A stretch of DNA of 64,000 bases from Candidatus Doudnabacteria bacterium RIFCSPHIGHO2_01_FULL_46_24 (GTDB lineage: Bacteria > Patescibacteriota > Doudnabacteria > UBA920 > O2-02-FULL-48-8), in contig MFEL01000008.1 of the NCBI GenBank assembly GCA_001777575.1, positions 42,634 through 106,633 on the forward strand. Direction: 5' to 3'. The notes beneath the pieces were generated by a model. The model made no database searches. It saw nothing but the letters and a program-made list of their open reading frames with translations, and was not told where the DNA came from. Of the stretch, positions 19,143 to 25,453 are shown one piece after another. Each line of letters opens with the position of its first letter. Within the stretch, counting starts at the first letter, position 1. The translations under genes were made by a program, and so were the position numbers.

Positions 19143-19149
19143 AGTTTTT

Positions 19150-19197
19150 GGAGGGGTATCCTCCTGGCTAAACGCTTATCTGGGAGGATGCCCCTCC
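19150..19197. promoter_or_regulatory. Long GC-rich hairpin immediately 5' of proS (15-bp arms GGAGGGGTATCCTCC / GGAGGATGCCCCTCC, 18-nt loop)
   Basis: The arms are reverse complements with one mismatch. Located 8 nt upstream of the proS start codon. Confidence 0.5.
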
Positions 19198-19334
19198 CTG
19201 AAAGTGCCAAGCGCATAAATTCAAATGATGTCTAAATTATACCCTCTCTTGACAATTTGGGCAAAAAATCCTATTTTTAACTGCTCAGTGCTGTGCGTAC
19301 CGATTCATCATCGACTCAAGGCTCAGGAGGAACC

Positions 19335-19529
19335 ATGAAGGAACTCATCAAGGGGTTCTCTTTCGCCATCACGATCGCTCTGATCGCAGCGTCTCTGACC
19401 GCTTCTGGCCACCGCGATTGGGCCTTCGCCGTGTTGTATGGAGCCTTGGTGTGGGTTGGCGTAAGCGTGGGTGTCCATCACCGCCGCCGCTCCCGCCACA
19501 GGCGACAATACCGCCGCGACGTTCACTAA
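19335..19529 (+). CDS. Small GC-rich ORF: two-TM membrane peptide with an Arg-rich C-terminal tail. The frame continues after an in-frame TAA to 19667.
   Basis: AGGAGG 4 nt upstream of the ATG at 19335. GC3-rich codon usage, unlike the host genome. The same frame stays open for 45 more codons after the TAA at 19527. Confidence 0.35.
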   Translation: MKELIKGFSFAITIALIAASLTASGHRDWAFAVLYGALVWVGVSVGVHHRRRSRHRRQYRRDVH

Positions 19530-19977
19530 GTAGTTGTCATTCCCAGAGCCGACGACTTCGTCAAGACTCTGGTCGAGTGCCGACTCGAACGCGAGGCGCA
19601 AAAACTCATCGCCAGAGCAATCCACGACAGGGTCGCCGTTCTCGCACGGCAGGCGGGCATGATCTGATCTAGGTTTCATGCCCAGATCACCGCCTCAAAC
19701 GCGAGGAGAGGATGGCTAAGTAAGCTTCCCTCCTCGCCCCCCTTTTTCCCCTTACTCCATTTCTCTCCTTACTCCCTTTACACCCATTATTCCCCTTTCT
19801 GAGGTTTTTATTTTACCCTAAAGGACACCCCTAAAGGACACCAGGACAACCCAATCAATACTTCACTGCACTGAAGCAGTGAAGTATTGCGTTGTCCAGA
19901 TTGACAGGAAACTTTAATGCGCCAGGCGCCTGGCGCAATAAAATGTTGCTTTAATATTAAATAAACGAAATTTTAAA

Positions 19978-19998
19978 GGCTCAACCGGCGGTTGAGCC
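19978..19998 (-). terminator. Hairpin (ggctcaacc/ggttgagcc) downstream of the rseP stop
   Basis: A 9-10 bp GC-rich stem 8 nt after the rseP stop, followed on the minus strand by a U-rich stretch. Confidence 0.45.
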
Positions 19999-20005
19999 TT
20001 GGCCT

Positions 20006-22840: not shown

Positions 22841-23801
22841 TCAATTCATTATTAAGCATTAAGTTCGTCAGCACGAGCTTACTGTTGAGGTTTTGGTCGA
22901 GCAATAATGTGGTCGCCAACAGATTTCTAAGTTTGGCTGCGGTCGATACCGAAGGTTTGGTTTTCAATTCCTCAGCTAGTTTAACTGTCCAAAAATGAAT
23001 CTTTGAGTGAACCGTATCGTTCTCCTCATCCTCAAGCGCGGAGACCAAAAGAAGCCGTTGCATCTCATCAGTAGAAATAAGATCATTATATTGTGAATCA
23101 ATCTCGCTCAAATGCGCCAAAAAATCTTCATCGCTAGAAATGCGCATCGCAATCCCCGGTTGAGTCGGGGCGTAGGCGGCAATCAGTCTTTTTTGCTCTG
23201 ATGAAAGTTTGGCGGGAAGTAAATTTTCGTAATCCTTGAATTCCGCGCCGCCGAAAGTTATTTTCTGCAATCTCGAGGAAATGGTTTTAAGCAGGCGCTG
23301 CGGGTTGGCGGTGACCAGAACAATAACCGTGTAAGACGTGGGCTCTTCCAGGCTTTTGAGCAAGGCGTTTTGAGCCTCAACCGTCATGTTCTCCGCCTGG
23401 TCTATGATCGCAACTTTATAAGTCGCGCTGTAAGGCTTTAGGGATAATTTGTAAATCAATTCCCGCACCTGACCAATCTTGATTCCGCCTGTGCCATCCA
23501 GCTCTATAAGATCTGGATGGAACCTGTTGCTCTTGTCATCTCTACTCCCCACACCCAACTCCAAAAGCCTCTCCGCAAACCTCCTCGCCGCAGTCCGCTT
23601 GCCCACGCCCTCTGGCCCGGCAAATAAATACCCATGCGCAAGCTTGCCTCGACTTATGGCATTTTCCAAAAATTCCAGTTGTCTTTTGTGTCCGCAAATG
23701 TCTCCCCACATATTATTAATTTTAGCATTTTCTATCAGGATTGACAAAAGCCCCGCCAACGCCGGAGCGTCGCAACAAAAAACCAGCAAGCGAGAGCGCA
23801 T
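22833..23801 (-). CDS. holB: DNA polymerase III delta-prime subunit
   Basis: AAA+ clamp-loader fold. GPEGVGK P-loop. Confidence 0.75.
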   Translation of the reverse strand: MRSRLLVFCCDAPALAGLLSILIENAKINNMWGDICGHKRQLEFLENAISRGKLAHGYLFAGPEGVGKRTAARRFAERLLELGVGSRDDKSNRFHPDLIELDGTGGIKIGQVRELIYKLSLKPYSATYKVAIIDQAENMTVEAQNALLKSLEEPTSYTVIVLVTANPQRLLKTISSRLQKITFGGAEFKDYENLLPAKLSSEQKRLIAAYAPTQPGIAMRISSDEDFLAHLSEIDSQYNDLISTDEMQRLLLVSALEDEENDTVHSKIHFWTVKLAEELKTKPSVSTAAKLRNLLATTLLLDQNLNSKLVLTNLMLNNELNA

Positions 23802-24036
23802 GCTGACTTTTGTTAGGCCCAGTATATCAACTTCGATAAATGGTTTTATCCGCTTTTGCGGTCTACTATAACCAAGCTCTCGGTTATAGTTGATGAAAGA
23901 TCAGGCATTGATCGATCCGACCATTTGAACGCAAAAGCGATCGAAGTTGTATTACTGGGTAGGCTTAACCTCAGCCATTTTCGCAAAAGCAAACTTAGGC
24001 GTCAATCAGGATAAGTGGAAAAAATGTTAGTAAAAA

Positions 24037-24053
24037 GCCACCTCATCGGTGGC
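24037..24053. terminator. Symmetric hairpin gccacc-tcatc-ggtggc flanked by A5 and GTTTTA (bidirectional terminator-like)
   Basis: Lies inside the 575-bp ORF-free region. Read on the minus strand it is followed by a T run. Confidence 0.4.
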
Positions 24054-24399
24054 GTTTTACATACAGATCGGTGTGGTACTGATTTGTCAGCTTCGCCCTT
24101 ACGAACTCCACTGACCGAAGGAAAAGGTCCAAGAGGTTTCCCTTACTTGTTTGACACCGAAGACATTTCTTCTTCAGCGTACCTTTACTAACCAGTATCT
24201 CTTGATCCATCGAACAGCCTTTTTAGAGCCGTCCTGCTTCGCAAGGGTTGCCCCTTACGAAGACCATGGTAGGAACATTCTAACTAGGGTAAAAAATCAC
24301 GTCAAATATTTTTTCAATTACAAAAAATAGCCACATTTGCAGGCTTTTTTGTCAGGCTGTGAATAAGCTGTGCCTATCAAGAGGATAATATCTTAATAT

Positions 24400-24445
24400 C
24401 TATAATATCCCAATATCGATATTAGGATACTAAGATATTGGGATA
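24400..24445 (-). terminator. Perfect 15-bp inverted repeat (taatatcccaatatc / gatattgggatatta) immediately after the mreB-paralog stop
   Basis: AT-rich perfect palindromic arms separated by 16 nt, directly 3' of the stop at 24446. Confidence 0.4.
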
Positions 24446-25453
24446 TTATTTGCTCGCCAATATGCTGCGCTTATAACTCTCCAAGTTTTCCAGTGCCACA
24501 CCCGTTCCTTTGGCTACGCATAAAATAGCATCATCAGCCACATAAGCAGGTACGCCGGTGGATTGGCCAATCAGACGCTCAATGTTCCGCAGGAGCGCCG
24601 TACCGCCAGTTAGAACCATGCCTTTATCAATGATATCCGCGGCCAGCTCCGGCGGCGTTTCCTGCAGGACGGTTCTTACGGCTTTGATGATTTCGCGCAG
24701 TTCTTCCTGGATGGACTCGACAACCTCATTGGTCGAAACCTGTACGGTTTTGGGCAGGCCCTGAATCAAATCCCGGCCGCGAATCTCGATCGTGGTTTCT
24801 TTATCCACGGGCAAAGCCGAGCCAATTTTGATTTTTATCTCCTCAGCCGTACGATCCCCGACCGCCAAGCCATATTTGCGGCGAATATATTCAGCAATAG
24901 CCTGGTCAAGCTTATTACCAGCCACGCGCACGGACGTCTGGGTCACAATTCCGCCCAAAGACAGCACCGCAACATCAGTCGTGCCCCCGCCAATATCGAT
25001 AATCATGTTACCGGAAGGCGTCGAAATATCTATTCCAGCACCTATGGCAGCAGCCACCGTCTCTTTAATGACATAGGCGGCCTTGGCGCCAGCTGCGGTA
25101 GCGGCGTCCACCACGGCGCGGCGCTCAGTCGATGTAATGCCGCCTGGCACAGAAATCATGACTTCCGGCCGGAAGAACCGGATATTGCCCGCCGCCTTGT
25201 TGATAAAATACCGCAACATGGCCTCGGTTACGCGGTAATCCGCAATCACCCCGTCCTTCATGGGCCGGTGCGCCACGATGGTGTCCGGGGTTCGGCCAAG
25301 CATCTCTTTGGCTTCCGCGCCCACAGCCAAAACTTTGTTGTCAACGGTTGAAATAGCCACCACTGTTGGCTCATTGATGATAATGCCTTTTTTCGGCACG
25401 AAGACTAAGGTATTAGCTGTGCCTAAATCTATGCCGATTCTCTTTAGAAACAT
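24446..25453 (-). CDS. mreB: MreB-family actin homolog (second paralog)
   Basis: [14 protein letters not shown] motif. 335 aa. About 50% identical to the copy at 16850-17908. Confidence 0.85.

Follow-up and report, generated by a model that had tools for sequence, protein, structure and literature searches.

Non-coding DNA is scarce in the tiny genomes of the candidate phyla radiation (CPR, or Patescibacteria), and the unusual, reduced ribosomes of these bacteria are served by few ribosome-assembly factors. To our knowledge, almost nothing is known of their regulatory and structural RNAs. Here, we analyse a 64,000-nucleotide (nt) stretch of Candidatus Doudnabacteria bacterium RIFCSPHIGHO2_01_FULL_46_24 (contig MFEL01000008.1), which we call the window. 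In particular, we focus on the spacer between mreB and holB (the latter encoding the DNA polymerase III delta' subunit), a true non-coding gap of 734 nt (23712–24445) between two minus-strand genes, and on two candidate RNA genes within it, unit 1 and unit 2.

Several described systems come close to parts of this spacer. The small stable RNAs of bacteria (RNase P RNA, 6S RNA, transfer-messenger RNA (tmRNA) and signal recognition particle (SRP) RNA) resemble units 1 and 2 in size and in their strong promoters, whereas the two units lack their defining motifs, their folds and any match to their covariance models. Orphan structured RNAs such as raiA, OLE and ROOL/GOLLD are, like unit 1, stand-alone molecules with many helices, GNRA loops and invariant junction nucleotides, each kept in one lineage without an obvious partner gene. 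Unit 1 differs from them in having no sequence or structure match in Rfam 15, in belonging to a CPR lineage at a fixed mreB–holB site, and in that multimerization is merely hinted at by a palindrome at its 5' end; OLE, ROOL and GOLLD are also larger. For unit 2, the comparison is with separate pieces of 23S ribosomal RNA (rRNA), namely eukaryotic 5.8S RNA and the fragments that arise in alphaproteobacteria through an intervening sequence in helix 9. The bacterial 23S fragments known to us all come from the processing of one transcript, never from a separate gene. Finally, head-to-tail DnaA-box arrays are found in E. coli oriC (low-affinity boxes with 2-bp spacing), in datA/DARS and in clusters of B. 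subtilis.

From conserved gene signals and covariation, we are highly confident that both units are genuine non-coding RNA genes, and the alignments show purifying selection on both their sequence and their secondary structure. The wider explanation, which we consider likely, is that the spacer is a compact two-RNA-gene module of Doudnabacteria-like CPR, lacking in more distant CPR. The module would consist, in order, of a phased DnaA-box-like array, a promoter with unit 1 and its terminator, a second promoter with unit 2 and tandem terminators, and then a probably leaderless holB (coordinates are collected in Table 1).

Two RNA genes in the mreB–holB spacer

Our sample comprises 15 independent relatives with a non-coding mreB–holB gap and two more distant CPR loci (L146 and L148; loci are cited by L numbers), drawn from contigs encoding HolB homologues and from one metagenome scan with an invariant 22-mer. 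Unit 1 occurs in 13 Doudnabacteria-like loci and unit 2 in 15. The HolB proteins of these relatives are 34–54% identical, yet the spacer block aligns at 74–77% DNA identity. In L146 (3994–5942) and L148 (3992–5822), mreB and holB are adjacent or overlapping, which indicates that the whole module is an insertion in the Doudnabacteria-like lineage. A HolB-based scan of species-representative genomes returned only three loci, all distant and outside this lineage, and scans of viral contigs with unit 1 and unit 2 patterns gave chance matches in coding DNA, or none.

The initial annotation, made from the window's letters, had proposed one unannotated structured RNA on the minus strand, starting near 24400, about 370 nt long and ending at a hairpin at 24037–24053. 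The strand, the structure and the end hold. The start gives way to a conserved promoter at 24305–24277, which places it near 24270 and shortens the RNA to about 240 nt. The transcript is also not single: a second RNA gene, with its promoter at 24005–23977, lies downstream and had been overlooked, as had the conserved DnaA-box-like array between a palindrome and the first promoter.

Could both units nevertheless form one long structured RNA of some 370–520 nt, with the internal hairpin serving as structure rather than as terminator? They lie only about 25–200 nt apart in most loci, and terminators can leak. Yet a conserved hairpin and U-run closes unit 1, after which a conserved TTGAC and −10 element precede the 5' end of unit 2, and the linker between them is unalignable and of variable length. 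In addition, two protein genes separate the units in L014, and in L009 and L147 unit 2 stands at the mreB–holB site without unit 1. A single RNA is therefore hardly credible.

Unit 1: gene signals and conservation

The promoter of unit 1 is positionally conserved: TTGAC and TAnAAT show little or no variation across the 13 loci, and the spacer of about 17 nt between them varies in sequence. In the alignments, a conserved segment of about 207 nt begins about 7 nt past TAnAAT and is followed by a sequence-variable hairpin and a U-run. A simple promoter and terminator scan independently recovers the same elements, including the hairpin at 24037–24053 with its A-run and T-run, which is detected on both strands. 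The predicted boundaries of unit 1 are thus a start at its own promoter, at the A at 24270, and an end in its terminator, at about 24031.

Homologues share 66–82% DNA identity with the window copy. The mreB gene reaches 74–79% (85–93% as protein) and holB 64–70%, in partial alignment only; unit 1 is as conserved as mreB at the DNA level. Its nhmmer E-values in the relatives run from 1e-23 to 1e-72. A covariance model of unit 1 (R1) finds one copy in each positive locus, no further copy in the window and none in L009 or L146–L148.

The region had been described as free of open reading frames (ORFs). Small ORFs of 48–59 amino acids (aa) do exist in the gap; the best of them (24043–24210, minus strand) is not conserved. 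As for a small protein, the 55-aa ORF in unit 1 has no start codon in six of the 13 homologues and meets in-frame stops in nearly all, and the alignment indels are not multiples of three, which argues that unit 1 is not coding. A positionally conserved promoter, an intrinsic terminator and no conserved ORF together make up the signature of an independently transcribed small RNA gene. In unit 2, too, no conserved peptide is encoded.

Unit 1: a covariation-supported fold

The minus strand is structure-rich, as the initial annotation had it. The segment 24280→24030 folds with z = −4.36, none of 200 shuffles being as stable, while the plus strand of the same segment reaches only z = −2.03. We used RNAalifold on 13 distinct sequences to obtain the fold of unit 1, which has 75 pairs in 10 helices. 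Compensatory double changes support 41 of the 75 pairs, and 93.8% of cells are paired. The covariation score is 0.454 against 0.235 for column shuffles (0 of 500 reach the observed value); sliding the 3' partners by 1–3 columns lowers it to at most 0.16, and sliding them by one column drops pairing to 51–53%. Many pairs are G–U in most sequences. These conserved G–U pairs fit the minus strand only.

From 5' to 3', unit 1 consists of a single-stranded ACCAUGG, helix 1 (11 bp, GNRA loop), helix 2 and a multi-branch domain. This domain is closed by the helix GGAUC/GRUCU, after which a 9-bp helix leads into nested junctions bearing a hairpin with a GAAGAAA-type loop, an invariant GNRA hairpin and a GUAA hairpin. 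The fully invariant hairpin, AACAAGNAAGGGNAACCUCUUG, can be written AACAAG-N-AAGGG-N-AACCUCUUG; CACACCG is an invariant single strand. Two stem-loops picked out by eye from the window fall into this fold: cttcgcaaggg/ttgc/cccttacgaag at 24236–24261 is helix 1, and gtcag...ctgac at 24087–24112 is helix 8, which encloses the GUAA hairpin. The recurring word also noticed there is real (cccttacgaa, at 24096–24110 and 24252–24266). Altogether, the core has nine helices that are covariation-supported or invariant, three GNRA-type loops and invariant junction strands.

At the 5' end of unit 1 lies a self-complementary hexamer with compensatory changes at its inner pair (CCAUGG, CUAUAG and CGAUCG, with UCAUGG using a wobble pair). 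Since such a hexamer cannot form a hairpin, pairing between two molecules is possible, and two copies of unit 1 may bind each other through it.

Other features of the sequence led nowhere. A long-range GGUGU:ACACC pairing within unit 1 is perfect in eight of 13 sequences, has a central U–C mismatch in the other five and shows no covariation, which leaves it unsupported. Likewise, CACACCG, ACCAUGG and an h45-like GG-GNAA-CC recall 16S rRNA; local alignment in both orientations against shuffles gave z ≤ 1.8 with E. coli 16S, 23S and 5S, and we rejected unit 1 as a 16S mimic or fragment.

Relation to known RNA families

Searches of the whole window with Rfam 15 at gathering thresholds returned nothing. 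This includes the check on both strands that the initial annotation had called for, with RNase P, 6S and tmRNA as its size-based candidates. At E ≤ 10 (segments of 851, 701 and 251 nt, both strands, with matches listed down to about 11 bits), there was no RNase P, 6S, SRP or tmRNA, and only spurious miRNA-hairpin and terminator matches appeared. The same kind of hairpin or terminator matches was all that Rfam gave in one relative and 19 other loci. ARAGORN found no tmRNA in the window and four syntenic loci, and no transfer RNA (tRNA) in the window. Literature searches on non-coding RNAs of Doudnabacteria and other CPR, and on 23S helix 1 in CPR, turned up no account of these RNAs. Judged by these searches, units 1 and 2 match no catalogued RNA family. 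The proposal that the region might be plain intergenic or promoter DNA had been tied to missing Rfam matches and missing conservation; the outcome is split, with no Rfam match, yet very strong conservation in the comparative alignment.

A highly diverged housekeeping RNA missed by Rfam deserves consideration, because CPR RNase P RNA is known to escape it: in 10 of 35 complete CPR genomes, this RNA was found only by sub-threshold searches (PMC8172020). The sizes of the units and their strong promoters would also fit. Against this stand the empty searches at E ≤ 10 and with ARAGORN, and the folds themselves. For RNase P RNA (RF00010/RF00011), there is no covariance-model match, and unit 1 lacks CR-I (GAGGAAAGUCC), CR-V (ACAGAAnnCGGCUUA) and P4; it also has no P1, in that its 5' end is single-stranded without a 3' partner, and its core is just 207 nt. 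For 6S RNA, unit 1 is multi-branched, with its 10 helices, rather than a rod with a central bubble, and unit 2 is a mini-hairpin followed by variable hairpins. Unit 1 has no tRNA-like end such as tmRNA would need. For SRP (4.5S) RNA, the apical loop on the long hairpin of unit 2 varies and is not of the GNRA type, and the internal loop of this hairpin (AACUUC/AGGA) differs from the SRP domain IV motifs. In addition, unit 1 is absent from the mreB–holB site of L009 and L147. We regard a diverged member of these families as highly improbable.

How unit 1 might act

Unit 1 probably works in trans, as a compactly folded RNA. In this model, it would serve either as a protein-binding scaffold or as a catalytic or ligand-binding RNA, and would join raiA, OLE and similar orphan structured RNAs. 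The model draws on the complexity of the fold and on its position, with the terminator of unit 1 coming directly after it and another promoter next, which argues for action in trans.

A rival is a cis-acting riboswitch or leader, in which the terminator of unit 1 would control read-through into what lies downstream. An aptamer-like fold directly before an intrinsic terminator is what one would expect of such an element, and the CACC/GGUG core of the terminator stems resembles the invariant CACACC strand. What follows the terminator is inconsistent, however: mostly unit 2 with its own promoter, and otherwise unrelated genes. Across the 13 loci, we found no conserved alternative pairing and no covarying antiterminator, and Rfam gave no riboswitch match. 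A riboswitch or leader is thus very unlikely.

Some observations nonetheless weigh against a trans-acting unit 1 or limit its support. In L014 and L136, ORFs start about 20–35 nt past the terminator of unit 1, and genes so close behind it would also fit a role in cis. Unit 1 resembles nothing known, so that the scaffold or catalytic idea is argued from architecture alone. All homologues come from one lineage, and some of the covariation counts are consequently phylogenetically linked. For the 5' palindrome, in particular, the 13 sequences show two independent compensatory events and a single wobble change. Finally, the transcript ends of both units are predictions from consensus motifs.

Unit 2: an invariant 5' end on variable hairpins

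Unit 2 begins with the 13-mer RAGGUUAAGCCUA. This sequence, the only invariant part of the unit, does not vary across the 15 loci (L009 and L147 included). TTGAC and a −10-like hexamer precede it in 13 of the 14 gap sequences scanned, the exception being L136, where the contig ends; L147 has them as well. In most relatives, unit 2 is about 100–150 nt long and consists of the 5' mini-hairpin AGGU-UAA-GCCU, a small covarying hairpin, an A-rich linker and a long hairpin that doubles as terminator. The small hairpin changes from CUAAACGUUUAG to ACAAAGCUUUGU, and so on, and the terminator hairpin carries an internal loop, AACUUCGC/GCAGGAUC, conserved in eight lineages. Overall, 14 of 33 pairs show compensatory changes (seven canonical sequences). 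The minus strand of the window from 24030 to 23745 folds with z = −6.78, and none of 200 shuffles is as stable. A search within the window for targets complementary to the 5' 13-mer stayed at chance level.

The window copy has a shortened terminal hairpin (23807–23783). A separate observation concerns the insert of about 140 nt at 23818–23959, which recurs in L012 (about 2685–2830); the two lineages are not close relatives, and the copies are 75% identical. Within it, the conserved complementary segments GCUUUUGCG/CGCAAAAGC and AAAUGGU/ACCAUUU cross each other, which would allow a possible pseudoknot.

Unit 2 and the ends of 23S rRNA

The invariant 5' end of unit 2 matches the 5' strand of helix 1 of 23S rRNA and is complementary to the 3' end, with the E. 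coli rrn operon, not a Doudnabacteria 23S, as the reference. E. coli 23S starts with the GGUUAAGC of unit 2 (8/8, GGTTAAGC in the operon), and the reverse complement of AGGTTAAGCCT matches its last nucleotides exactly. More fully, E. coli 23S ends in ...GAGGCUUAACCUU, and AGGUUAAGCCU is the exact reverse complement (11 nt) of that 3' terminus. Only 0.002 exact 11-mer matches would be expected in the rRNA operon, and this one falls at the very end of 23S. Unit 2 of L137 aligns to the start of E. coli 23S with 17 of 18 positions matching and a single gap of 1 nt (z = 3.3). Thus, unit 2 shares with helix 1 both its 5' 8 nt and the complementarity to the 3' end. It differs from a 23S 5' end in being flanked by a promoter and a terminator of its own, apart from any rRNA gene, and in lacking the next universal segment (GGUGGAUGCC...) and the other domain I helices; what follows its 5' end is a local covarying hairpin rather than domain I homology. 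Rfam scans of the window and other loci found no rRNA.

We take unit 2 to be a probable look-alike of helix 1 in 23S rRNA, with the 5' strand mounted on stabilizing hairpins, which would account for the rest of the molecule. Pairing of the 13-mer with a 23S 3' end of canonical sequence would give a duplex of 11 bp. Because the invariant 5' 13 nt equal the 5' strand of helix 1 and have this duplex potential, the most likely mode of action would be pairing with the 23S 3' end, or competition for whatever recognizes helix 1, during large-subunit maturation. That unit 2 acts through this relationship at all is a tentative proposal, one we would not yet bet on. Several points speak against it. No similarity to E. 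coli 23S extends past about 20 nt. The match rests on E. coli rRNA, from which the host's own 23S ends may differ. The 5' 11-mer is near-palindromic and itself forms a small hairpin, and the invariance of the 13-mer could instead reflect a protein site or a DNA operator at the transcription start.

Another explanation of the same similarity is a functionless relic, that is, the promoter and first nucleotides of a 23S gene left behind by a rearrangement and now decaying. The 8-nt identity and the L137 alignment fit it, as do the fast evolution beyond the 13-mer and the tolerated insertion of about 140 nt. In CPR, rRNA genes are frequently unlinked and rearranged (PMC8172020). Neutral DNA of this kind would have decayed, however, while the 13-mer and terminator are kept in 15 of 15 loci, and the promoter wherever it could be scanned apart from the truncated L136, despite HolB identities of 34–54% and intergenic DNA that otherwise does not align. 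The covarying hairpins and the conserved internal loop also point away from decay, and a relic is quite unlikely.

The helix 1 proposal leads to distinct expectations for the host's own 23S gene. A cognate 23S with the 3' end ...AGGCUUAACCU and its own GGUUAAG 5' strand would make unit 2 a competitor or mimic; a gene without that 5' strand would mean a split rRNA.

DNA upstream of unit 1

Four head-to-tail repeats with the consensus gg-TTATTCACA, which fits the DnaA-box consensus TTATNCACA, lie about 75–120 nt upstream of the unit 1 start in all 13 unit 1 loci. The array directly follows mreB in L009 and L147 and is otherwise in the same place in L006–L014 and L136–L143. The promoter-proximal box (24366→24358) is a perfect match to TTATNCACA and the only perfect one here; in 12 of 15 loci, this box has 0–1 mismatch, and the others mostly have 1–3. 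Across the window, boxes with at most one mismatch number 61 against 47.6 expected by chance, a slight excess.

The array is like known DnaA-box arrays in its consensus-fitting 9-mers, set head to tail 2 bp apart. It differs in that only the proximal box is near-perfect in most loci, in lying upstream of a non-coding RNA promoter and in lacking a switch in GC skew. Our hypothesis is that it serves DnaA regulation or DnaA titration, and that it may link expression of the module to DnaA is speculation; direct repeats for an OmpR/PhoB-type regulator are an alternative that the 11-nt period would also suit.

Taken further, the whole interval might be a DNA element, such as a replication origin or a datA/DARS-type cluster of DnaA boxes, with the RNA genes incidental. 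Four phased TTATTCACA 9-mers with 2-bp spacers in 15 loci, beside AT-rich DNA and near holB, would suit such an element. A replication origin was rejected: GC skew is negative throughout the window, and genes on both sides are on the minus strand (almost all ORFs of at least 120 aa across the 64 kb), with no switch in either. The presence of only one perfect box and the fit of the period to OmpR/PhoB-type regulators also count against it. Above all, a DNA element cannot account for compensatory changes with strand-specific G–U pairs, and we find this explanation most improbable.

Between the array and the −35 element of unit 1 lies a terminator-like hairpin (24350–24322), which probably ends upstream (mreB) transcription; its T-run falls at the position that an UP element would take. 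Most relatives have a sequence-variable hairpin and T-run at the same place.

The AT-rich palindrome at the mreB stop codon consists of perfect 16-nt arms (24402–24417 and 24434–24449), 8-nt GATATT-type repeats and the centre ATCGAT. A perfect inverted repeat past the stop codon had been reported in the initial annotation; it is indeed there, with arms of 16 nt rather than 15. The palindrome is not conserved in relatives (alignment columns 1–30) and is genome- or lineage-specific; Rfam gave only spurious miRNA-hairpin matches to it. It may be an mreB terminator or a protein-binding site.

Locus boundaries and setting

The ORF called mechanically for holB begins at 23801, whereas HolB homologues align from residue 1–2 of MWGDICGH. 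The start is thus the ATG at 23711, and the gap is wider than the 575 bp (23871–24445) first delimited. The same −10-to-ATG spacing of 7 nt is found in L010, L142 and L141, and the holB mRNA is probably leaderless, since its ATG lies just 7 nt past the −10 element. The closest named HolB homologues are from Candidatus Doudnabacteria, at up to 54% identity. The same contig, identical, occurs in several metagenome assemblies.

Table 1. Features of the mreB–holB spacer and its borders, from the mreB side to the holB side (window coordinates)
Feature	Position	Strand	Description	Basis
mreB	24446–25453	minus	flanks the gap; neighbour on the mreB side	
AT-rich palindrome	24385–24449		~65 nt; overlaps the mreB stop codon	
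DnaA-box-like array	24401–24358	minus	four 9-mers, 11-nt period, 2-bp spacers	
Terminator-like hairpin	24350–24322	minus	AGCC/GGCU with A-run and T-run; between array and unit 1 −35	
Unit 1 promoter	−35 24305–24300; −10 24282–24277	minus	TTGACG, 17-nt spacer, TAGAAT	scan and conservation
Unit 1 RNA	24270→24030; core 24270→24064	minus	~240 nt; core 207 nt	alignment, fold
Unit 1 intrinsic terminator	24053–24037; U-run 24036–24032	minus		scan and conservation
Unit 2 promoter	−35 24005–24000; −10 23982–23977	minus	TTGACG, 17-nt spacer, GAAAAT	scan and conservation
Unit 2 RNA	23972→23777	minus	~195 nt; predicted start ~23971	fold, alignment
Unit 2 5' invariant segment	23972→23960	minus	GAGGUUAAGCCUA; small hairpin AGGU-UAA-GCCU	
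Unit 2 inserted hairpin	23959→23818	minus	~140 nt; expansion common to window and L012 only	
Unit 2 terminator	hairpin 23807→23783; U-run 23782→23777	minus		fold, scan
Second intrinsic-terminator-like hairpin	23768–23750	minus	GCUCCGGCGUUGGCGGGGC then UUUU; back-up terminator before holB	
holB promoter	−35 23747–23742; −10 23724–23719; ATG 23711–23709	minus	TTGTCA; TG-extended TAAAAT	promoter scan, sequence
holB (DNA polymerase III delta')	start ATG 23711	minus	first residues MWGDICGH	

Elsewhere in the window, a gap of about 860 nt without an ORF of at least 120 aa lies at 19143–20005, so the region singled out by the initial annotation may not be the largest non-coding stretch.

Across Doudnabacteria-like loci, the mreB–holB spacer is a hotspot for variable cargo, with PaaX-like, cupredoxin-like and DUF4383 genes and 0.5–1.1 kb of unalignable DNA. 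For example, about 1.1 kb of L010 (1419–2450, from mreB to the repeat array) contains neither a called gene nor a convincing ORF and is not conserved in the other loci. Public annotations place antisense hypothetical proteins in the gap, one of 121 aa downstream of unit 2 in L006 (2483–2848) and one of 146 aa in L009 (2333–2773) that overlaps the 3' end of mreB and the DnaA-box-like array. Neither has a Pfam match, and both are probably spurious.

Implications

Read jointly, unit 2 would be a separately encoded strand of 23S helix 1 and unit 1 a new class of compactly folded, possibly self-pairing RNA, both co-regulated by DnaA through the box array. This combination as a whole is a long shot. 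Under it, unit 2 would be a piece of a split 23S supplied in trans, a bacterial analogue of 5.8S at the level of the gene, or an RNA dedicated to clamping the 23S 3' end, or to competing for it, and so to gating maturation of the 50S subunit.

For annotation, the consequence is practical: mreB–holB gap loci draw spurious ORF calls, as the antisense calls in L006 and L009 illustrate. For the biology of these bacteria, the module means that a class-level lineage has, throughout, kept two RNA genes in the same place. The support for unit 1 makes it a good candidate for a new class of structured RNA, suited to biochemistry and structural work, and with unit 2 a connection between a small RNA and the two ends of 23S rRNA becomes open to direct testing. 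In addition, the conserved DnaA-box-like array provides a possible handle on replication-coupled regulation.

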